This document shows positions 4,793-64,000 of a DNA stretch of 64,000 nucleotides, in pieces. A program made the position numbers and the translations under genes. Position 1 is the stretch's first letter. Each line of letters opens with the position of its first letter. The stretch lies in NCBI GenBank assembly GCA_018093385.1, contig GCA_018093385.1_4808.1; one strand, 5' to 3'. Under the pieces are notes generated by a model. The model was not told the DNA's origin, did no database searches, and saw only the letters and a program-made list of their open reading frames with translations. Source of the stretch: a phage.

Positions 4793-6253
4793 ATGAATAA
4801 AATATTAACACATAATTGGAAATTCATGTACCAGTTGAATCCTGCTTTAAAAGAAGTCTGGAAGACAAAAGCGCGATACAAAGTGATATACGGCGGTCGT
4901 GCATCTTCCAAATCGCACGATGCCGCTGGTTTTGCTATTTATTTGGCGGCAAACTTCAAATTAAAATTCCTTTGCGTTCGACAATTCCAGAACAAGATTT
5001 CTGAATCTGTATATACTCTATTAAAAGACAAAATAGAGATTTCTGATTTTAAAGATGAGTTCAATTTATTAAAGAACTCTATCGAACACAAAAGAACTAA
5101 ATCTGAATTTCTATTTTATGGTATCGCACGTAACGTTGATGAAATCAAATCAACAGAAGGCGTTGATGTTCTTTGGCTGGAAGAAGCGCACGCGCTTACT
5201 GAAGAACAGTGGGACATTATTGAGCCGACAATACGTAAAGAAGGGTCCGAAATATGGATCATCTTTAACCCTGATGAAGAGGCCGATTTCGTATATCAAA
5301 ACTTTGTTATGCGACCGCCGAAGAATGCCATTGTTAAAAAGATAAACTGGCAAGACAATCCATTTTTGTCGCAAACGATGCTGGACGTTATTGCAGGCAT
5401 GTACGAGCGTGACCCGAAAAAGGCAGAGCACGTTTATGGCGGCGTGCCGAAGACTGGCGGCGACAAATCTGTAATCAACCGCGCATTCGTTAAGGCCGCG
5501 CTTAATCTACACAAGCACCCCACGCTGGGCTGGAGTTTGTCAGGGTCTAACCGTATAGGCTTTGACGTAGCGGACGATGGCGACGACCTTAACGCCACTG
5601 CATTCGTCACAGGAAACGTATTGCGCGGCATCAAGACGTGGGAAGGCCTGGAAGATGAATTGTTGAAATCGGCAAGCGGAGTTTGGAAAGATGCGCTTAC
5701 ATTCGGCGCTTCCATAACTTATGACGCCATCGGTGTCGGCGCTTTTGCTGGTTCAAAATTTGATGAACTAAACGAGTATGCAATACATGAAAATCCATCA
5801 TTTCCAAGAATCGAATTTAATGCGTTCAACGCGCAAGGGTCTGTTGATGATCCTGATGACGTTTTTCTTGAATTACCACACGTTGAAATACTCAATAAAG
5901 ACCATTTCGCAAACATAAAAGCGCAAAAATGGACTGAAATTGCAGAGAGATTCAGAAAGACATACGAATATGCAACTGGGCAAGCCGTATATCCGACTGA
6001 TGAATTGATTTCAATCGACACCGATGGTATACCGGAACTTGGGATTCCAGCTTGGACTACTGAAGAGATTGAGACGTTTCTTTTTGAGATGTCAGCGCCG
6101 CGCAAGGATACATCTGTTCTTGGTAAGTTCAAAGTTGAATCTAAAAAGGACATGGCAAAGCGCGGAGTCAAATCACCTAACAAAGCGGACGCAGCAATCA
6201 TGGCATTGATGAAACCAATCGTTGCAGCATCCGGCTTCTTCTCTAACCTTTAA
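4793..6253 (+). CDS. terL: terminase large subunit
   Basis: Walker A-like YGGRASSKS, Walker B-like VLWLEEAH, C-terminal nuclease-like region; 486 aa; precedes portal. Confidence 0.85.
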   Translation: MNKILTHNWKFMYQLNPALKEVWKTKARYKVIYGGRASSKSHDAAGFAIYLAANFKLKFLCVRQFQNKISESVYTLLKDKIEISDFKDEFNLLKNSIEHKRTKSEFLFYGIARNVDEIKSTEGVDVLWLEEAHALTEEQWDIIEPTIRKEGSEIWIIFNPDEEADFVYQNFVMRPPKNAIVKKINWQDNPFLSQTMLDVIAGMYERDPKKAEHVYGGVPKTGGDKSVINRAFVKAALNLHKHPTLGWSLSGSNRIGFDVADDGDDLNATAFVTGNVLRGIKTWEGLEDELLKSASGVWKDALTFGASITYDAIGVGAFAGSKFDELNEYAIHENPSFPRIEFNAFNAQGSVDDPDDVFLELPHVEILNKDHFANIKAQKWTEIAERFRKTYEYATGQAVYPTDELISIDTDGIPELGIPAWTTEEIETFLFEMSAPRKDTSVLGKFKVESKKDMAKRGVKSPNKADAAIMALMKPIVAASGFFSNL

Positions 6254-6256
6254 CAA

Positions 6257-6496
6257 TTAAAGCATTCCGTGCTGAAGGTCTAGTTTTCTTGCAGCAAATG
6301 ACCTGGCACGGAATCGCTTACCCGCTCTTACTGCCTGCCGAATCTTCTTTTGCATACACTTACGGTCAAAATCGTTGCGGTCAACGGCTTCGAGCAAATC
6401 CCGACGCAAAGCACCTAGTGTCGCCTTTTCGGATACTTCTATGCCCAGCGCGGCTGCAACGTCTTTCAAAACATCGAGTTCGGTTAATGTTCTCAT
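6257..6496 (-). CDS. small basic protein with HeH/SAP-like N-terminus
   Basis: TLTELDVLKDVAAALGIEVSEKATLGALRRDLL helix-extension-helix-like motif; Arg/Lys-rich C-terminus; opposite strand to flanking TerL and portal. Confidence 0.45.
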   Translation of the reverse strand: MRTLTELDVLKDVAAALGIEVSEKATLGALRRDLLEAVDRNDFDRKCMQKKIRQAVRAGKRFRARSFAARKLDLQHGML

Positions 6497-6909
6497 TTGA
6501 TAATCCCCTTGATGTCTGATTCAGCCATAAAAATGGGAGTGCCGTTTCCAGGAACGATTGAGCGGGTAATTTTGTCAAACAGATCGCCTTCCTCGACATG
6601 AATCTTGTAAAAGAGATTCTTGGAGTTCGAAGGGCACAAACCGATGAATTTGCCGATGCCGCGCACGCATTCATCTTCAAAGTATACCGTTTCACCTTCG
6701 AGAGATTCGATGCTCTGGACAGGGTATACTTTACGACCCATAAGCCATTCGTCAAGCGTCGCCTGCAACACGTTTCGCGAATCTAAAATCCATGGGTCAA
6801 TTTTCGCATCAGGGTATCGCGCGGCTGTCGCCTTTGCCAATTCTTCATATTCGCAGACGTTGACAACTTCGCCTTCGTGGATAACTACAAATACAATTGT
6901 TGTGCTCAT
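6493..6909 (-). CDS. hypothetical protein (138 aa)
   Basis: ORF in track, 4-nt overlap with downstream gene; no recognisable motif. Confidence 0.45.
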   Translation of the reverse strand: MSTTIVFVVIHEGEVVNVCEYEELAKATAARYPDAKIDPWILDSRNVLQATLDEWLMGRKVYPVQSIESLEGETVYFEDECVRGIGKFIGLCPSNSKNLFYKIHVEEGDLFDKITRSIVPGNGTPIFMAESDIKGIIK

Positions 6910-7070: not shown

Positions 7071-9446
7071 ATGAAAATTCTTGGCATAAAACTCTGGGAG
7101 AAGACGCAACCAGAAGCCGAACCAGCGGAGATGCCGCCAGGCGACCCATTGGCACCGTTTGAACGCCTTGAAAGGCGCGGCAGCGGTCAACGCTGGGAAA
7201 AGACTGAAAGCAATCGACCGACCTTTAAAACGGTTGATGACTTCCCTTTATATGAGCCTGATATCAACGGGGACGGCGTTGCAATCATCAAAGGTCGCTC
7301 AGTAGATTCAGCAACCGTATCCAAAAAAGTTATGGATAATGCCTTAAAGAACATCAGTTCAGAAGGGCAGGTGAATCCATACACAGTGCCTATTCAGTTG
7401 CAAAACTGGTACTTGTCGCAGTCATTCATCGGCTATCAAGCTTGCGCCATCATCGCGCAGCACTGGCTGGTGAACAAGGCTTGTTCCATGGTAGGTCGCG
7501 ATGCGGTCCGTAAAGGCTGGGAAGTCAAATCCAGTTCTGAGTCGGAATTGTCAGTACAGGCCAGCGAACGCCTAAAGCAAATTGATAAAGAATTTAATAT
7601 CAAAGAGCACTTAGTTGAAGCCGAACGATTCAAGAATATTTTTGGCATCCGCGTCATCATATTTGATGTGCGCAGTGATGACCCAGAATATTATAGTAAA
7701 CCTTTTAACATCGATGGTGTGACAAAAGGGTCTTATAAGGGAATCATTCAGGTTGACCCTTATTGGATGATGCCATTCTTGACGTCTGAAAACACTGCAG
7801 ACCCTGCGTCACAGCATTTCTATGATCCAGAATACTGGGTTATCAGCGGACAGCGTTATCATCGCAGCCACCTAATCATCTTGCGCAACGATGAGCCAGC
7901 TGATATTCTCAAGCCGACTTATATCTACGGCGGCATTCCTCTGACTCAGCAGATTTATGAACGTATCTATGCCGCTGAACGTACCGCTAACGAAGCGCCA
8001 TTGCTGGCGATGTCTAAGCGTACAACCACGCTGCGGACCGACGTTGACAAGGCGATTGCCAATGAGCGGTCGTTTGCCGAACGTCTGATGATGTGGATTA
8101 AGTACCGCGACAACTATGCGGTAAAAGTGCTTGGTCAGAAAGAAGAGATGGACCAGTTTGACATCAACTTGTCAGACTTCGACAGCATCATCATGAACCA
8201 GTACCAGCTGGTGGCTGCAATCGCAAAAGTGCCGTCGACGAAGCTATTAGGGACGTCACCTAAAGGCTTTAACGCCACTGGTGAGTTCGAGATGGTCAGC
8301 TATCACGAAGAATTGGAAACTTGTCAGCAGCACGATTTGACGAAGATTCTGGACCGTCACTATAAAATCCTTTTGAAATCTGAAGGTGTTGAAGTCGACG
8401 TTAAAGTGGCATGGGAGCCAGTTGGTTCACTTACTGCTACTCAGCTTGCAGAGATTAACGACAAACGAGCGAATACTGGTAAGACTCTCATTGATGCTGG
8501 CGTCATCTCCCCTGATGAAGAGCGCGACCGCATCAAGGACGACAAAAACAGCGGCTACAACCGTTTGCCAGAAGATACAGCAGAAGAAACCCCAGGGATG
8601 TCTCCAGAGAATATGGCATTGCTTGGCAAGTCTGCTGGTGAAGTTCTGCAAGGTAAAGCCGATATTGAACAGGCCAAAGCTGATGTCGTCAAGATGGGCG
8701 GCCAGTTCTATAGTGAGACTGGTATCATGCCGGAAGGTGCCGCGCGCGGTGAGTTGGCAGAAAACCCTGACAGGGCGCCAGTTGAGATCAACATGGATGA
8801 TACCGATGACGAATCAAGCCATCAGGTTGATGTCCTAACGCAACTGAAAGAAGGTCTGGAGGGTATTGCTGACTATTACCTTAAAGAAGGTCAGGATGTG
8901 GATTTTGACCCTCAAAAAGACGCAAGGTCTGTGCAGCCGTCTACCCTTCCAAGCGTAAAAGGCAATGTAGTCAACTTGCGCCACAATGTAGGGAAGATGG
9001 ATGCCTCATCGCTGCCTAAGATGAAGTTGCACGGGATGATTCTTGGTATTGAGAATCCTCGCAACAGCATTCGCAGGGGCAACAGCCTTGATGGTGAATG
9101 GGCAGTTAAGATGCCGCACCATTACGGATTTATCAAAGGCACCAAGGGCGCTGATGGTGATGAAGTCGACTGCTTTGTTGGACCAAATATGAAGTCGCCT
9201 AAAGTATTCATCATTAACCAAAATGATAATTATTCTGGCGAATTTGATGAACACAAGTGTATGCTTGGATTTGATTCAGCAGAAGAAGCGAAAGAAGCTT
9301 ATCAAGCATCATTTGGTAACGGTTGGAATGGATTTGACTCAATCCACGAATTGGATGTAAACTCATTCAAGGAGTGGTTGAAGGGTGATTGCTCTCAAGC
9401 ATATGGAGCACTCAATAATCCTACTAATTCACCGAAGCAAGGTTGA
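7071..9446 (+). CDS. portal protein with C-terminal extension
   Basis: 791 aa ORF between TerL and MuF-like gene (synteny); C-terminal ~120 aa carry pyrophosphatase-like motifs (see findings). Confidence 0.55.
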   Translation: MKILGIKLWEKTQPEAEPAEMPPGDPLAPFERLERRGSGQRWEKTESNRPTFKTVDDFPLYEPDINGDGVAIIKGRSVDSATVSKKVMDNALKNISSEGQVNPYTVPIQLQNWYLSQSFIGYQACAIIAQHWLVNKACSMVGRDAVRKGWEVKSSSESELSVQASERLKQIDKEFNIKEHLVEAERFKNIFGIRVIIFDVRSDDPEYYSKPFNIDGVTKGSYKGIIQVDPYWMMPFLTSENTADPASQHFYDPEYWVISGQRYHRSHLIILRNDEPADILKPTYIYGGIPLTQQIYERIYAAERTANEAPLLAMSKRTTTLRTDVDKAIANERSFAERLMMWIKYRDNYAVKVLGQKEEMDQFDINLSDFDSIIMNQYQLVAAIAKVPSTKLLGTSPKGFNATGEFEMVSYHEELETCQQHDLTKILDRHYKILLKSEGVEVDVKVAWEPVGSLTATQLAEINDKRANTGKTLIDAGVISPDEERDRIKDDKNSGYNRLPEDTAEETPGMSPENMALLGKSAGEVLQGKADIEQAKADVVKMGGQFYSETGIMPEGAARGELAENPDRAPVEINMDDTDDESSHQVDVLTQLKEGLEGIADYYLKEGQDVDFDPQKDARSVQPSTLPSVKGNVVNLRHNVGKMDASSLPKMKLHGMILGIENPRNSIRRGNSLDGEWAVKMPHHYGFIKGTKGADGDEVDCFVGPNMKSPKVFIINQNDNYSGEFDEHKCMLGFDSAEEAKEAYQASFGNGWNGFDSIHELDVNSFKEWLKGDCSQAYGALNNPTNSPKQG

Positions 9447-9447
9447 T

Positions 9448-10299
9448 ATGGCTTTTAAAGCTTCGAAAAAACGTGAACGTCGCTCGCCCGATAGAATCGG
9501 GCGCGGCAGTCCGATAATCCCATCCAACGCTATTGCGATGGCCTATCGTCGTGAGATGAAAGGTCTTTGCTATGCGATGATTGACGACTATCAAGCAGGA
9601 ATTGCTGAGTGGCTTGAAAAGAAGCAGGTTAAAAAGTTCTTTGCGCAAGACTCTGCTGATTCAACTTTTCAGACCTTGATGAAGCGACTGCAACTGAAAT
9701 GGGCAAAAGCTTTCGCCCGTGTCGGGTCAAAGATTGCCGCAGATTTCATCAAGTCAGTTGAAAAGGGTGCCACTTCTGCTACATTTGCAAGTCTTAAATC
9801 TGCAGGAATAGAAGCGCCAAAAGCCACATATAATAAATTCGTTGAGAACACTCTTAAAACAAGCGAGACGTTCAACACGACTTTAGTGACTAAGGTTGGC
9901 GAAGATATTCACAACAGGGTGTACGAAGCGGTGATGCTTTCGCTTACTTCGCCAGACCCAGCGCAACAAGGCACGTCCGGCATTCAGGCGGCATTAAGGA
10001 ATGTAAAACACTTCTCTGCAAAACGCGTAGACCTTATTGCAAAAGACCAAACAAGCAAACTTTATTGCGTATTAAGTGATGAAAGGATGCGACAGAATGG
10101 CGTTGAGGAATTTGAGTGGGCGCATTCAGGAGCAGGAAAAGAGCCGCGAATATCGCATGAGCACGTCGACGGAATGAGATTTAAACTTGATGACAAGCGC
10201 CTATGGGAAGTTGGCGGCGAATTGAAGTTCAAAAAGGGTGACATCGGTCCTCCTGGATGGGCGATACACTGCAAGTGCAGAAAAATACCAATTATCTGA
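9448..10299 (+). CDS. head morphogenesis protein (Mu F / SPP1 gp7-like minor head protein)
   Basis: Position immediately after portal; ATG 9448 one nt after portal stop; size ~284 aa. Confidence 0.5.
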   Translation: MAFKASKKRERRSPDRIGRGSPIIPSNAIAMAYRREMKGLCYAMIDDYQAGIAEWLEKKQVKKFFAQDSADSTFQTLMKRLQLKWAKAFARVGSKIAADFIKSVEKGATSATFASLKSAGIEAPKATYNKFVENTLKTSETFNTTLVTKVGEDIHNRVYEAVMLSLTSPDPAQQGTSGIQAALRNVKHFSAKRVDLIAKDQTSKLYCVLSDERMRQNGVEEFEWAHSGAGKEPRISHEHVDGMRFKLDDKRLWEVGGELKFKKGDIGPPGWAIHCKCRKIPII

Positions 10300-10306
10300 G
10301 GTCATT

Positions 10307-11227
10307 ATGACGATACCAATCAACACATTCCCTCTATCTGGACAAACTCCAGTCTTGCCTGCGGTGTATGCTAATGGCTTGGCAATTGTCTCAGAATTCA
10401 CTTCTGATAAAAACTTGATTGTTCCACTGAGCCCGCCGCTTGCATCAGGGTATAACTCAGTAGGCCAATTCTTTATGATTGGCAATGATGGCGATTCGAC
10501 CAGCAAGCCTAATCTGACATTGTCTGTACCTAAGATGGACATCACAGACGTTCAAACTGGCTTGACTGCATCAACAATCACCATTGCTTTTGGAGAAGCG
10601 GTGATTATAGGAATGGAGTCTGGAGGGTCCAAGAATGCTGTCGCCGTTAAGGTAGTCAAATCCAGCGACAACCAATACACGTTACCAGCTGCGACGGCTT
10701 CCGTTCTCGGCGGCGTCAAAATAGGAAGCGGAATAAGCGTCGCAGGTGACGGTACAATTAGCGTCACTCAATACTCATTGCCGATTGCGTCAGCATCTAC
10801 TTTAGGCGGCGTAAAGGTCGGTACAACTCTATCAATTGATGGTTCCGGTGTGCTTAACGCAGCGGAAAGCACCGTCCAGAATGCCACGAACAGTGTTAGC
10901 AATCCTCCAACCACTTTGGTTAATCTGGCAACCTTAAACCTTCCTGCAGGAAAGTGGCTTGTGACGGCAAGTCAGTTGACTGTCGCGACAGCAGGAATTC
11001 AAGCGAACACCGGAATTACAGCCAAATTGTCAACAAGCGATTCAGATATTACGGATGATGCATTTACGATGTCAGCTGGCATTCGGGCTGCAGGTCGTTT
11101 CGGCGGCAATATTCCAACAAAGATAATTACTCTTGCCGCGCCTGGCGATGTGTATCTAAACTATCAATGCACAGATGCGTTGACATCTACCGTTTACGGA
11201 CAGATCACCGCAATCAAGCTGAACTAA
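10307..11227 (+). CDS. tail-fibre-repeat-containing protein
   Basis: Tandem motif YTLPAATASVLGGVKIGSGISV / YSLPIASASTLGGVKVGTTLSI typical of phage fibre repeats; ATG 10307 chosen over upstream track start. Confidence 0.5.
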   Translation: MTIPINTFPLSGQTPVLPAVYANGLAIVSEFTSDKNLIVPLSPPLASGYNSVGQFFMIGNDGDSTSKPNLTLSVPKMDITDVQTGLTASTITIAFGEAVIIGMESGGSKNAVAVKVVKSSDNQYTLPAATASVLGGVKIGSGISVAGDGTISVTQYSLPIASASTLGGVKVGTTLSIDGSGVLNAAESTVQNATNSVSNPPTTLVNLATLNLPAGKWLVTASQLTVATAGIQANTGITAKLSTSDSDITDDAFTMSAGIRAAGRFGGNIPTKIITLAAPGDVYLNYQCTDALTSTVYGQITAIKLN

Positions 11228-11237
11228 AGAGGAAGTT

Positions 11238-11375
11238 ATGCAAAAGATTATTCAGTCACGTTATGTTAAAGTGCGAAATATTAATTGCAACTCTTTGCTT
11301 TCTTGGAAATGGGCTGTTTACGACTCGATGTTAATTGGCGTTTTAGTTGCAGGAGTGCTATTTAATATTCACTGA
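11238..11375 (+). CDS. small hydrophobic protein (45 aa)
   Basis: RBS AGAGGAAG upstream of ATG; C-terminal hydrophobic stretch; below track size cutoff. Confidence 0.3.
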   Translation: MQKIIQSRYVKVRNINCNSLLSWKWAVYDSMLIGVLVAGVLFNIH

Positions 11376-11399
11376 ATTCATCGGCAAAGGATTGCCGCG

Positions 11400-11700
11400 A
11401 GTTTTATACGTATAATGACGTATCATCCGTATCAAGTAAGTTGTTGTTTTCAAAAGAATCTTACGGATGATACGGATGATACGCATTGCCGCCGTACTAT
11501 ATAGGAATTCAAATAAATTAATTTAAAATTATATATCTAATTTAATTTTATTTTTTTATAAACTCTTATATATGAAAAGTATCCGTATCATCCGTATCAT
11601 CCGTAGCACACCAGTGATAGCGCGGCTTATACACCGATACGGATAAAAATACGCCTCATTTTATCCGTATCATCCGTATCACACTAATAAAGGCGCGGCT
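11400..11700. repeat. iteron cluster flanking an AT-rich core
   Basis: 9-bp unit TACGGATGA / TCATCCGTA in 2-3 tandem copies at about 11421-11436, 11461-11482, 11581-11608, 11634-11643, 11662-11683 in both orientations around ~75 bp of nearly pure A/T (11500-11576); palindrome TATACGTATA at 11406-11415. Confidence 0.6.
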
Positions 11701-11790
11701 ATATCGGTCGTTATACATATTCAAACCATAATTATTGTTTGCCTAAGTTTTTTTCATTAGATATAATACACAATACTTATTTGAGGGTGG

Positions 11791-13209
11791 ATGCGAATGC
11801 AAACGGCACGCGAAATTGACAAAAATGGATTCTTGACGATTATGGGTTGTCCAATTTCGTCATTTGGCATTTTTGATTATTCTGCTGGTCAAGTTGGTCT
11901 TGATGGTGATCCGAATCGCATCGTAAAAGTCTATCGCCCTGAGTCAGCGGTGAAAGACCCCGAAGCGATAGATTCATTCAAAAATATCCCTTTCATCGAC
12001 AATCACGAAATGCTTTCTGGATTTGAAGGTGATGAGGATAACACAGCACCCGAAGAGTATGGAGTTGATGGCGTTCTGACTGGCAATGTTTATTATGACA
12101 AGCCATGGATGCGCGGCGACCTTAAAGTGTTTAGCCGTCGTCTGAAGAAGGCCATTGATTCTGGAAAGGTTGACTTGTCTTTGGGCTATGACTGTGAATT
12201 CATCATACAGTCTGGAGAGTTTGACGGGCAGCCGTATGAAGTGGTGCAGACAACTCTTCGCGGCAACCACATTGCTCTCGTGGACGTTGGTCGAGTACCA
12301 GGTGCACGGGTGCTGGATGGTCGTTGCTTTGACCATCTTTGTTTGACGACTGTAACACCATCCAACGAGGATTTAGACATGCCAAAACCGTTAAAAGGTA
12401 AAGCGCGTGATAATGCTGTTGAACAGCTGAAATCACTGATCCCTGCGCTCGAACAATTTCTGAATGAAGAGAGTACTGAAGCTGCTCATCAGGACGAAGT
12501 TGAAGTGAAAGCAGAAGAGAAGGACTCAACCGAAAATCGTGAAGAAGTAATGGTTGATCCAGAAGTCAAGGCAGAAGCAGAAGAAACCCCAGAAGGTGAA
12601 GAGAAGTTTGAAGTTGAAACTGAATCTCACGCCAGCGGCGAACTTCCGCAATTGATCAGCCAAATCGAAGCACTTATTGCAAAACTGAAAGGTGGCGCGG
12701 TAGGTGATGAAGAAGAAGTTGAAGCCGAAGTCAAAGACGAAGAAGTTGAAGTCAAGGCTGAAGATGTATCACCTTGCGACAAAGCTGAAGATGTGGTTAG
12801 CGGCCTGCAAAACAGCAACGTAAAGGGGGCTTCGGTCGAAAAAGATGACAAACCGACAAAAGCGGCGAAAGCGTCGCCAGGTCCAGCAAAAGGGGAACAC
12901 TCAATGGCATCTGATTCAGCAGTTGCTGCTTTCTACGCTGATTCTGCTCGTAAGAATAGCCTCTACCAGCGCCTGTCTAAAGTTGTTGGTGCCTTTGATC
13001 ATGCAACTATGGACTCCAAGTCCGTAGCGAAATATGGCGCTAAAAAGTTAGGCTTGAAGTGCGTTGATGGTGCTGAGTTTGACGTGGTGGATAATTATCT
13101 GCGCGGCGTTGAGCACGGTCAGAAACAGCGTGTAGTCGCAAAACAAAAGGCCGCTGCGGATTCTGCAGCAACTGACGAAGCATTTGAAGCTTGGTTGAAA
13201 GGGGAATAA
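11791..13209 (+). CDS. putative prohead protease/scaffolding protein
   Basis: Position before major capsid gene; long acidic low-complexity/coiled-coil middle (EVEVKAEEKD...); alternative start ATG 11797. Confidence 0.5.
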   Translation: MRMQTAREIDKNGFLTIMGCPISSFGIFDYSAGQVGLDGDPNRIVKVYRPESAVKDPEAIDSFKNIPFIDNHEMLSGFEGDEDNTAPEEYGVDGVLTGNVYYDKPWMRGDLKVFSRRLKKAIDSGKVDLSLGYDCEFIIQSGEFDGQPYEVVQTTLRGNHIALVDVGRVPGARVLDGRCFDHLCLTTVTPSNEDLDMPKPLKGKARDNAVEQLKSLIPALEQFLNEESTEAAHQDEVEVKAEEKDSTENREEVMVDPEVKAEAEETPEGEEKFEVETESHASGELPQLISQIEALIAKLKGGAVGDEEEVEAEVKDEEVEVKAEDVSPCDKAEDVVSGLQNSNVKGASVEKDDKPTKAAKASPGPAKGEHSMASDSAVAAFYADSARKNSLYQRLSKVVGAFDHATMDSKSVAKYGAKKLGLKCVDGAEFDVVDNYLRGVEHGQKQRVVAKQKAAADSAATDEAFEAWLKGE

Positions 13210-13211
13210 AC

Positions 13212-13829
13212 ATGACTTTCCAAACTAGTGTAGGCCGTCAATATACAACTGGCTTTCCTGGCGACATCGTTCGCGACGGCCCACAGCGTGGGAAGCCAGG
13301 CCGAATCGTTAGCGCCAACGACGGTGCAAACGTAAACGCCATCAGCCGTGTGTTTGGTTTTAAAGCTGACGTATCATTAATGGGTACTGGCCAAACCAAA
13401 ACCTTGGGCGCGCAGGACTTTGAAGTTGAACTGGGCGGCACCAATTACTATGGCATCCTTGGCAACAGCAAGCGTTACGCTCTGTATGGCAACTCTACTG
13501 GTCCTTTGGGCGCCAGCATGGTTCTGCCTCAATATAGCGAAGGCGAGTTCTACGATATGTGCACGGGCCTCGTAGTTGAAGTATTCAACCCAAGCACCAG
13601 TCCGCAGACGCTGAACTACGGCGACCTGCTCGCTTATGTACCTAAAGGCATTTCCAGCGGTAACAACCCGAACAACTTGCCTATCGGTGCAATTATCGCC
13701 TACACTGGCTCACTGCCAACTGGCATGGTTGCCATTCCAGGCGGTATCGTGATTGACCCGACTGCTATTGCCCTTTCCGGCCCAAGCGTCCAGTCTTCCA
13801 CTTATACCATTGTACAATTGACTCGTTAA
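13212..13829 (+). CDS. putative capsid accessory/decoration protein
   Basis: ATG 13212 just after scaffold stop; sits between scaffold and major capsid genes. Confidence 0.4.
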   Translation: MTFQTSVGRQYTTGFPGDIVRDGPQRGKPGRIVSANDGANVNAISRVFGFKADVSLMGTGQTKTLGAQDFEVELGGTNYYGILGNSKRYALYGNSTGPLGASMVLPQYSEGEFYDMCTGLVVEVFNPSTSPQTLNYGDLLAYVPKGISSGNNPNNLPIGAIIAYTGSLPTGMVAIPGGIVIDPTAIALSGPSVQSSTYTIVQLTR

Positions 13830-13843
13830 TAGGCAGGTGAATA

Positions 13844-14983
13844 ATGACTCGCATTAGCCAAACACACTCTCGCCTCCCAGCGAGCAAGGTGCGCCCTTTT
13901 GATATGCAATCCGTCACTGACGCGGCTGTTTCCCAGCTTGCTCGTATCGGTATTGTGTTTGATTCCGCGATTGTGCGTGATCAAATTGAGCACTTAAACC
14001 GTGCAGGCGCTTTTCGCGTAGGTGACGCCGCGTTTACTGCGCCGCAGACTACTCCGTCAATCCCGACCCCGTTGCAATTCCTGCAGCAATGGCTGCCTGG
14101 CTTCGTCAAAATCATGACCGCTGCTCGTAAAATCGACGAGCTGGTTGGTATTGATACCGTTGGTCAGTGGGAAGATGCGGAAATCGTTCAGGGTATCGTT
14201 GAACCAGCTGGCACCGCAGTTGAATATGGTGATTTCACCTCTATTCCTCTGGCAAGCTGGAACGTAAACTTTGAACGTCGTTCTATCGTTCGTGGCGAAA
14301 TGGGCATGGCAGTTGGTATGCTGGAAGAAGGCCGCGCGTCTGCTATGCGTCTGAACTCCGCAGAAACCAAGCGCCAGCAGGCTGCTGTATCTCTGGAAAT
14401 CATGCGTAACGCAATCGGCTTCTATGGTTGGTACAACGGGAACAACCGCACATTCGGCTTCCTGAATGATCCAAACCTGCCAGCAGCGATGACTTCCCAC
14501 ACCACTTCCGGCTGGGCTACTGCGACTTTCCAACAGGTAACTGCAGACATCCGTTTGATGGTTCGTCAAATTCGTGTGAACTCTCAGGACCAGATTGATC
14601 CAGAGAAAGTTGACATGACTCTGGCGCTGCCGACTAACTCTATCGATTGGCTGTCCAACACCACTGACTTCGGTATTTCTGTACGTGACTGGATCACCCA
14701 GACTTATCCGAAGATGAAGATCAAATCTGCACCGGAACTCAACGGCGCACTTGGCAGTGACCCGACTTTCTTGAACGTGGCATACCTGTACGCTGATCAC
14801 ATCGATTCCTCAATTGATGGTTCAAGCGATGATGGTTCCGTATTCAGTCAGCTGGTTCAAACCAAGTTCATGACTCTGGGCGTTGAAAAGCGTGCTAAGA
14901 GCTACGTTGAAGACTACGCAAACGCAACAGCAGGCGTTCTGCTCAAGCGTCCGTTCGCAGTCGTCCGTATGACTGGTATTTAA
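13844..14983 (+). CDS. major capsid protein
   Basis: 379 aa ORF with strong RBS GGCAGGTGA, directly downstream of scaffold genes, followed by stem-loop; size and synteny typical. Confidence 0.6.
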
Positions 14984-63830: not shown

Positions 63831-63859
63831 AGTTAGCTGGCTAACCTTACGCATAGAAT

Positions 63860-63975
63860 TTAAGCGTATAATGACGTAAGATTTGGACCTATCCGTAGTT
63901 CACTCCACACACTTCTATGGTGCGCCGCGACTGGTTTCAGTGGTACATCTTACGGATGATACGGATGATACGCGT
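63860..63975. repeat. second copy of iteron/promoter-like module
   Basis: GCGTATAATGACGTA and 27-bp ATCTTACGGATGATACGGATGATACGC identical to 11458-11484; palindrome GTTAGC-TG-GCTAAC at about 63831-63846. Confidence 0.55.
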
Positions 63976-64000
63976 CGCCGCTATACTTTATACAACTTTG

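Follow-up and report, generated by a model that had tools for sequence, protein, structure and literature searches.

A probable head fibre and a small membrane protein encoded between the Mu-F-like and scaffold genes of a Wifcevirus phage

The fibre gene and its product

The DNA analysed here is a 64,000-nucleotide stretch from a phage (contig GCA_018093385.1_4808.1; we call the whole stretch the window), and our subject is a pair of open reading frames (ORFs) in its head gene block, one for a protein with fibre-type repeats and one for a small membrane protein. The product of the first, encoded at 10307-11227, is probably (we put the odds at roughly 0.6) a short trimeric virion fibre, an accessory and non-essential adhesin that is most likely anchored to the capsid as a head fibre. 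The two genes and the parts of the fibre gene are as follows.

10298-10301, plus strand: Shine-Dalgarno-like GAGG, 5 nucleotides before the fibre start codon and overlapping the Mu-F stop codon
10307-11227, plus strand: fibre protein gene (ATG start; 306 residues, 30.88 kDa, isoelectric point 4.7)
10307-10660, plus strand: N-terminal anchor domain, residues 1-118, all-beta in the AlphaFold2 (AF2) model
10676-10771, plus strand: fibre repeat 1, residues 124-155, YTLPAATASVLGGVKIGSGISVAGDGTISVTQ
10772-10867, plus strand: fibre repeat 2, residues 156-187, YSLPIASASTLGGVKVGTTLSIDGSGVLNAAE
10892-11224, plus strand: C-terminal domain, residues 196-306, predicted TNF/C1q-like jelly-roll knob
11228-11233, plus strand: Shine-Dalgarno-like AGAGGA, 4 nucleotides before the start codon of the small ORF
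11238-11375, plus strand: 45-residue small membrane protein gene (ATG start; predicted to be tail-anchored; the vB_Eco4M-7 orthologue is gp39)

Both ORFs lie where the original prediction had put them, each with its own Shine-Dalgarno-like site, and both coincide with annotated coding sequences of Escherichia phage HermannAdler_Bas98 (Bas98), vB_Eco4M-7, and other deposited genomes. Nucleotide identity over a 3.9-kb stretch around the locus is 98.6% with Bas98 and 98.4% with vB_Eco4M-7, and the 29 records that match this stretch all come from Wifcevirus or unclassified close relatives, with E. coli or Shigella as hosts. The orthologues of the fibre gene are vB_Eco4M-7 gp38, ECML-117 gp36, and Bas98 gp6. 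The gene stands in a head block that runs portal, Mu-F, fibre, scaffold, cement, and major capsid protein, and the gap of 7 nucleotides behind the Mu-F-like gene suggests that it is co-transcribed with the portal and Mu-F genes. This position, between head morphogenesis and scaffold genes, had been called atypical. The placement holds (Mu-F-like gene upstream, DUF2213/Pa193_gp24 gene downstream), and the position is unusual for fibre genes generally, but for this fibre family in this phage lineage it is a regular slot. GenBank records name the product inconsistently (tail fiber, tail protein, tail connector, head fiber, hypothetical), and in vB_EcoM_SP13 (L027, 1076-1828) the gene is annotated from an internal start codon.

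The fibre protein is made of three modules: an N-terminal anchor domain, two fibre repeats, and a C-terminal jelly-roll knob. Sequence searches found no relative of the N-terminal domain in Pfam, annotated PHROG, NCBIfam, or the PDB, and a search of NCBIfam with the fibre protein and the small ORF gave no match. The two 32-residue repeats are identical at 15 of 32 positions and carry an LPxAT..LGGVK motif. The protein matches the Pfam family PF11133 (Phage_head_fibr) at 29.4 bits, above the curated gathering cut-off of 24.6 (E 6.9e-7), and phrog_9625 matches the repeat with an E-value of 1.2e-14; together these matches and the internal identity bear out the tandem fibre-type repeats that had been predicted. 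The repetition is seen at the protein level alone, as Tandem Repeats Finder detected no DNA-level tandem repeat in the gene. Nearly all of the 971 database proteins that match the fibre protein at E<=1e-3 do so through the repeat alone. The PDB sequence matches of the family profile likewise all fall on the repeat motif: they are the head fibre gp8.5 of phi29 (6QVK, 3QC7; YSLPAATTTTLGGVKKG; E 4e-4 and 1e-3) and the head-fibre chains gp21/gp29 of crAss001 (7QOF; E 0.033). The full-length homologues P0002, P0003, and P0004, which are 48-56% identical, have 3, 4, and 2 repeats, respectively, and retain the N-terminal (~118 residues) and C-terminal (~111 residues) domains; this variation in repeat number is the modular behaviour of a fibre shaft.

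The fold of the knob comes from structure prediction. A first AF2 model, built with five full-length homologues, reached a mean predicted local distance difference test score (pLDDT) of 52.8 and was not used for fold searches. A second model, also of the monomer, included remote N-domain homologues from an exhaustive HMMER scan and reached a pLDDT of 76, with values of ~90-95 in the N-domain, ~85-90 in most of the C-domain, and low values in the repeat region, as expected when a trimeric shaft is modelled as a monomer. The model has no helix of four or more residues, and its shaft region is beta or extended. Foldseek matched it to TNF/C1q-type jelly rolls, including the BC2L-C N-terminal lectin, at E-values of 6.5e-5 to 1e-3 and a probability of 1.0, and the predicted model has the ten-strand jelly-roll fold of the TNF/C1q-like superfamily. 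The structural matches include PRD1 P5, BclA, the BC2L-C-Nt and PLTL lectins, and cyanophage fibre tips. The knobs of this class (PRD1 P5, Bacillus BclA/ExsFA, BC2L-C-Nt, PLTL, and the short tail fibre tips of cyanophages A4 and A-1(L)) share 9-19% sequence identity with the window knob, whose likeness to them is known here from the predicted monomer fold. We assign the jelly roll to the C-terminal domain because matches in BFVD are collinear over the whole query and have their C1q/BclB-type domain C-terminal to a collagen or fibre stalk, and because two tail-fibre chains align over 160-176 residues, the length of shaft plus tip. A profile search with the C-domain returned one weak match, the 168-residue metagenomic protein P0131 (E 3.5e-3), its sole relative outside the family. 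We considered whether the N- and C-domains are duplicates of each other and rejected this (hhalign probability 0.2%).

The protein is a component of the virion. Necel et al. analysed virions of vB_Eco4M-7 and ECML-117, purified on caesium chloride, by liquid chromatography-tandem mass spectrometry (LC-MS/MS; PMC7048862). The product vB_Eco4M-7_38 ('unknown protein', 30.9 kDa) was identified by 8 peptides with 72.9% coverage and a score of 3353.7, the third-highest in the table and above those of the cement protein, the portal, and the major capsid protein; ECML-117 gp36 (30.8 kDa) was likewise detected (PMC7048862). vB_Eco4M-7 gp38 is the orthologue of the window fibre protein, 99.3% identical to it, and the calculated mass of 30.88 kDa agrees. 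The original prediction had held that a protein absent from virions, at a locus absent from all relatives, would point to a recent non-functional insertion; as far as virions are concerned, these data contradict such an absence (PMC7048862).

Part of the protein can be lost. In PP596836, a re-sequenced vB_Eco4M-7, the fibre gene (L033, 201-1120) is split into two annotated coding sequences by a deletion of one nucleotide, equivalent to window position 10930, that truncates the protein just where the C-terminal domain begins. The depositors themselves list the change in Supplementary Table 11 as 'vBEco4M7_38 ... AC->C, frameshift_variant Thr209fs' (PMC11074155), and the synthetically rebuilt vB_Eco4M-7, a constructed phage, detected 53 of 53 clinical O157 isolates (PMC11074155). 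Since the stock with Thr209fs is fully infective, the distal knob is dispensable for laboratory infection; should trimerisation start from the knob, the same probably holds for the fibre as a whole. Two substitutions relative to the window protein accompany the frameshift in PP596836: Ala is replaced by Asp in repeat 1 and, near the C-terminus, Tyr by His.

Both genes are under strong purifying selection. The fibre gene is present at 95-99% amino acid identity in 29 Wifcevirus genomes, and both ORFs are conserved in all 29 Wifcevirus records. Across 10 of these genomes, the ratio of non-synonymous to synonymous polymorphism (pN/pS) is 0.052 for the fibre gene, with the N-domain the most constrained part (0.029; repeats 0.069, C-domain 0.070), 0.035 for the Mu-F gene, and 0.012 for the small ORF, where summed differences are 211 synonymous and 9 non-synonymous. 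The Mu-F and fibre genes show a synonymous divergence of ~0.31, the small ORF one of 0.16. These low ratios indicate that both ORFs are functional protein-coding genes. The conserved distal domain of the fibre gene is unlike the T-shaped tail fibre that determines host range, which is described as highly variable (PMC11990801). The G+C content of the fibre gene, 0.45-0.50, equals that of its neighbours, and no compositional trace of horizontal transfer was seen in it.

The genes and intergenic stretch around the pair are listed here.

4793-6253: large terminase
7071-9446: portal fused to an inorganic-pyrophosphatase-like domain (PF06381, E 4e-88; C-terminal PF18823, E 4e-46)
9448-10299: Mu-F-like head protein gene (stop codon 10297-10299)
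11376-11790: non-coding stretch of 415 nucleotides
11791-13209: DUF2213/Pa193_gp24-type (scaffold) gene
about 13212-13829: E217-gp24-type cement protein gene
13844-14983: major capsid protein gene

The label of scaffold for 11791-13209 is reasonable because residues 286-326 of the homologous Pa193 gp24 were built beneath the five-fold vertices of the capsid and read as a scaffolding remnant (PMC11456595). The fusion of portal and pyrophosphatase-like domain is kept in every E217-like relative examined (L002-L004, L009, L017, and MyoSmar). Between the terminase and portal genes, two small ORFs (79 and 138 residues) lie on the minus strand at 6257-6909; relatives have DUF2786/DUF7168 and trypsin-like genes there instead, which makes this another variable slot.

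The anchor domain and its slot in related phages

The N-terminal domain has a narrow distribution. Among 50,697 records of cultured phages it occurs in Wifcevirus and Bcepfunavirus only, and its remote homologues are exclusively the N-termini of fibre-like proteins of E217-like phages. A search of IMG/VR with a five-sequence alignment of the domain returned Wifcevirus contigs only; a word-indexed protein search with the domain alone was uninformative, as it missed even a 97%-identical cluster. Two hits of the profile search were set aside as false positives: P0122, which Pfam identifies as a tetratricopeptide-repeat protein, and P0130, which showed many short repeated matches of the same kind and was treated likewise. 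In relatives, the junction between the Mu-F and scaffold genes is occupied as follows.

Uncultured contigs L002-L004 (about 72 kb where complete): fibre gene, conserved 64-69-residue ORF, small membrane ORF, long intergenic region
Burkholderia phage BcepF1: 583-residue N-domain protein, 64-residue ORF, 46-residue membrane ORF
Contigs L013/L014: three large fibre-like genes, then an 81-residue homologue of the conserved ORF
Contig L017: a pair of adjacent N-domain genes (P0121 and a tandem paralogue), 7948-10871
Contig L009: slot empty; a 182-residue N-domain-plus-repeats protein is encoded just upstream of the terminase gene
Phage Maja (Bcepfunavirus; L032, 4495-4701): 68-residue ORF directly after Mu-F
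Pbunavirus 14-1 and MyoSmar: 68-69-residue ORF and 46-49-residue membrane ORF only
XcP1: nothing annotated

N-domain proteins thus stand directly after Mu-F in four further lineages (L002-L004, L013/L014, L017, and BcepF1), and the locus is present in every Wifcevirus; an absence from all relatives, which the original prediction had also named as a sign of a recent insertion, is contradicted. The fibres of L002-L004 are 48-56% identical to the window fibre, with 2-4 repeats. BcepF1 gp122 (YP_001039806, UniProt A1Z026) has the same N-terminal anchor (hidden Markov model E 3e-37, with the sequence itself in the model; independent tblastn 2e-5), occupies the slot directly after Mu-F, and is a Foldseek match in BFVD; it is 583 residues long, however, its shaft is collagen-like (GXY, PF01391), and its distal part is unrelated. 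The three fibre-like genes of L013 (3716-9388) include the N-domain protein P0127 and a 1073-residue protein with YadA-head repeats.

The fibre gene has also been lost repeatedly. The 68-residue ORF of Maja aligns to residues 4-69 of the BcepF1 N-domain with 42% identity (E 9e-9) and appears, from this alignment, to be a decayed remnant of a fibre gene; Maja gp006 is accordingly a likely remnant of an anchor protein of the BcepF1 gp122 type. Pbunavirus, MyoSmar, and XcP1 have no fibre gene at this junction. Such repeated loss is a pattern typical of accessory decoration proteins. An anchor tied to the head and packaging module, exchangeable distal parts, and repeated loss together point to an accessory surface protein that has a conserved head-module product as its partner. 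As judged from sequence comparison, the distribution of the anchor domain favours attachment to the capsid without proving it.

All relatives encode a highly conserved helical protein of 64-69 residues (MPLxxGTS...KDPKQAxAIAY), whose gene separates the fibre slot from the small membrane ORF (L007, 4139-4345; L006, 4166-4375; L019, 8824-9018; L002, 7034-7219; L003, 6952-7128). By position it is likely to be Pa193 gp21, which was found in virions by LC-MS. BcepF1 keeps this ORF, whereas no homologue was found anywhere in the 64-kb window, and Wifcevirus appears to have lost the gene. We considered whether the 68-residue ORF of Pbunavirus is a shrunken fibre N-terminus and rejected this, since it encodes the unrelated helical protein, which coexists with the fibre in L002-L004, L013-L015, and BcepF1.

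The small membrane protein and the repeat-rich intergenic region

The small ORF encodes a protein with a basic N-terminal half, an SWKW motif, an invariant Asp29, and a transmembrane helix at about residues 25-44. A hydrophobic ORF of 45 residues had been predicted; the ORF exists at that length, but only its C-terminal half is hydrophobic (residues ~25-44, Kyte-Doolittle values up to 2.3), its N-terminal half being basic. The GenBank note for vB_Eco4M-7 gp39 records a transmembrane domain by Phobius, and searches of Pfam, PHROGs, and NCBIfam gave no family match for the ORF. In the virion analysis gp39 was not detected (PMC7048862), which is unsurprising for a tiny membrane protein.

The same pattern of a basic half, an S/T-W/L-K motif, an invariant Asp, and a C-terminal helix is found at the same position in L003, L004, MyoSmar, 14-1, and BcepF1. 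The homologue in L003 is 52% identical (E 3e-13); those in L004, MyoSmar, 14-1, and BcepF1 have pairwise E-values of 0.003-0.06, weak yet positionally consistent. Because the pattern recurs in relatives, the gene is older than the Wifcevirus fibre and independent of it. It is a separate member of the conserved head-gene block of this phage family, and its product is predicted to be a tail-anchored protein of the inner membrane. A holin or other lysis protein was rejected, because the ORF lies in the head block of every relative and the lysis genes lie elsewhere (vB_Eco4M-7 gp64 and gp69). Our preferred guess, a doubtful one, is that the protein is a membrane-associated assembly helper that acts on the portal or prohead early in head assembly. 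A role in head assembly is favoured because the ORF closes the portal/Mu-F transcription unit in every relative. In T4, initiation at the portal is membrane-bound, which offers a loose analogy. Superinfection exclusion, or some other function at the membrane, is just as likely.

The original prediction placed an iteron region after the small ORF, and indeed the 415 nucleotides before the scaffold gene contain 9-bp repeats. The elements are these.

11382-11407, plus strand: terminator-like hairpin CGGCAAAGGATTGCCG with a T-rich tail, found by a consensus scan; putative function
11411-11790, no strand assigned: conserved region with 9-bp ATCCGTATC tandem units in both orientations around an AT-rich core, outside the fibre unit
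11419-11434, 11581-11608, and 11663-11681: ATCCGTATC tandem units, with an inverted array at 11462-11486
11739-11767: promoter-like site TTGCCT-17-TATAAT, preceding the scaffold gene

The hairpin, which is kept with differing flanks in the other Wifcevirus subgroup, is likely to end the transcription unit of portal, Mu-F, fibre, and small ORF. The repeat region is strongly conserved: 405 of 459 alignment columns are invariant across the 10 genomes, while the neighbouring Mu-F and fibre genes differ by ~31% at their synonymous sites. The window has 7 copies of the repeat 16-mer, where 0.02 would be expected. Relatives, including genomes without the fibre, have different repeat units in the same layout (GCGGATAA in L002, CGTATCATGA in L003, TTACTTTTCG in MyoSmar); the same architecture with different units suggests co-evolution with a cognate DNA-binding protein. 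A second locus with the repeat motif, TACGGATGATACGGATGATACGCG at 63951-63975 (within 63840-64000), has flanks like those of 11411-11500 and is interrupted by the end of the window. With the element at two or more genome loci, a regulator-binding site fits better than a single origin. A search of the region against Rfam gave chance-level matches only. The repeat element is thus an ancestral, strongly constrained site of regulatory or replication type, not cargo that arrived with the fibre gene.

Attachment of the fibre and its meaning

A head fibre or decoration protein was one of the readings offered by the original prediction, and it is the best supported. The gene lies in the head module; its repeat carries the motif of two structurally proven head fibres; its anchor is confined to the head and packaging modules of E217-like phages; and the product is present in purified virions, probably dispensable in the laboratory, and repeatedly lost in relatives. 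Among the closest counterparts is phi29 gp8.5 (PF11133), likewise a trimeric fibre (predicted to be so for the window protein) encoded within a head gene block, with an N-terminal beta-rich base of ~110-118 residues followed by the fibre, and with a Y-x-LPAAT-xxx-LGGVK motif. gp8.5 is a non-essential virion component; for the window protein, it is loss of the knob that has been shown. The two also differ: their similarity covers 30-40 residues only, the window fibre ends in a TNF-like knob, and the virus of the window is E217-like, with a contractile tail and a cement protein. In crAss001, gp21/gp29 share a YxLPAATxSxxGGVK motif and have been placed on the capsid by cryo-electron microscopy, but their chains are very short (97 residues), the match is marginal, and there is no common anchor or tip. 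T4 Hoc and T5 pb10 are non-essential, surface-exposed capsid accessory proteins that are thought to give weak adherence; they would be analogous in function, but they are Ig-like monomers, not trimeric fibres, and have no relation to the window fibre in sequence or fold.

Several points weigh against this assignment. We infer the attachment to the capsid rather than to neck or baseplate, and the trimeric state and glycan-type adhesion are predictions. gp8.5 has a capsid-docking base of ~110 residues followed by a fibre with a helix-turn-helix supercoiled stem (PMC6542822). Its two-barrel capsid base (residues 1-110) has no counterpart in the sequence or the all-beta model of the window fibre, and its three-stranded stem was not found there either; the protein is therefore not a full member of the gp8.5 family. 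The match to PF11133 spans only 40 residues (residues 108-147 against profile positions 213-252 of 277). Moreover, the repeat is common in tail fibres, with matches to phrog_10588 (tail protein, 7.6e-7), phrog_27381 (tail fiber, 2.9e-4), and the 'long tail fiber' of phiRSL1 (E 1e-14), so the motif indicates a fibre, not a head. The best structural matches are tail-fibre chains (9k09_A and 8ke9_A), and the jelly roll is only presumptively placed in the C-terminal domain, as the Foldseek output came without aligned residues. Mass spectrometry scores are not stoichiometries, and the frameshift shows that the knob, the C-terminal third, is dispensable, not necessarily the whole protein. Finally, several GenBank records name the protein 'tail fiber', 'tail protein', or 'tail connector'. 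Our literature search found no structural paper on Wifcevirus or Bcepfunavirus, and the E217 paper does not mention the genes of this junction.

Two other attachment sites have to be weighed, and we regard both as unlikely, to the same degree. The protein might be a whisker of the neck or collar, a trimer on the portal or connector region that, like T4 fibritin, acts as an environmental sensor or assembly aid. Its gene is the second after the portal gene and appears to share a transcription unit with it, some records say 'tail connector protein', and it is probably a non-essential virion protein, as T4 whiskers are. Yet the homologues of the E217 neck proteins gp27, gp28, and gp29 are equally conserved with or without the fibre, Pfam, PHROG, and PDB searches found no similarity to fibritin or a known neck-binding domain, and the slot can hold two tandem paralogues (L017) or several fibre-like genes (L013). 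This multiplicity suggests many equivalent binding sites, which a capsid lattice fits better than a single neck. Alternatively, the protein could be an auxiliary tail or baseplate fibre, a third receptor-binding fibre encoded in the head module, as implied by the Pharokka/PHROG-based name 'tail fiber protein' in Bas98-101 and by the repeats shared with tail-fibre families (phrog_10588, phrog_27381, phiRSL1); F13 is likewise annotated with a tail fibre here. Against this, the tail and baseplate genes begin well downstream, after the sheath gene, and do not include the fibre gene; the anchor is unlike any known baseplate-attachment domain, and the homologues that could be located lie in head and packaging modules only. 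The BASEL study explains two tail fibres without the fibre gene (PMC11990801), infection by the frameshift stock is normal although its knob is missing, the genus shows no diversification of the distal domain, and sister genera with a homologous tail have no fibre gene.

The original prediction also raised an inserted cassette together with the iteron element, and its refuting case was a recent, non-functional insertion; we weighed such an insertion as one of fibre gene, small ORF, and iterons. The fibre gene is indeed missing at the same junction in Pbunavirus, MyoSmar, and XcP1, and the intergenic region is rich in repeats and in AT. But both ORFs are under purifying selection, the protein is abundant in virions, the gene occurs in every Wifcevirus and at the same place in relatives at 48-56% identity, its G+C content is that of its neighbours, and neither flanking direct repeats nor an integrase were seen. 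The small ORF and the repeat-flanked AT-rich region are also found in Pbunavirus 14-1, MyoSmar, and BcepF1, with or without the fibre. The idea therefore fails, and a recent non-functional insertion is scarcely credible; neither the fibre gene nor the small ORF forms a cassette with the downstream repeat region.

For the capsid-anchored fibre, we propose the following course. The gene would share a transcript with the portal and Mu-F genes and be the last large gene on it (7-nucleotide spacing, own Shine-Dalgarno site, downstream hairpin). The C-terminal TNF/C1q-like jelly roll would trimerise and set the register, and the two LPxAT..LGGVK repeats would then form a short beta-structured shaft, as their fold class and the homologous repeats in solved fibres suggest. 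The N-terminal 118-residue domain would dock the trimer on an E217-type head-module component, the obvious candidate being a three-fold or quasi-three-fold site of capsid or cement protein. The distal knob may then make weak, probably glycan-directed contacts with the cell surface or the environment, the putative ligand being a glycan; such contacts would aid adsorption in nature and be unneeded for laboratory infection.

Head fibres and decoration adhesins are already known, and current understanding is not overturned; what is new is the undescribed anchor domain, which defines a family of its own, and a defined accessory slot in the head module of a phage family to which the therapeutic Pbunaviruses belong. 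For annotation, the result bears on an abundant but inconsistently named virion protein of Wifceviruses, which serve in biocontrol and detection of E. coli O157 and in the BASEL reference collection. A dispensable accessory fibre is not a receptor-binding tail fibre, and recognising this would avoid wrong inferences on host range. For engineering, the protein is an attractive site for tags or display: abundant, exposed, and with a C-terminal third known to be removable. We further suggest, tentatively and at somewhat less than even odds, that the N-domain is an undescribed capsid-anchor family of E217/BcepF1/Wifcevirus-type (Lindbergviridae-like) myophages and that the slot after Mu-F is a swap site, at which shafts (LPxAT repeats, collagen) and tips (a TNF-like lectin knob and others) can be exchanged behind the anchor. 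If so, these phages would have, besides their tail fibres and independently of them, a second adhesin system carried on the capsid, which would have been repeatedly lost and regained and may serve as a dispensable display platform.

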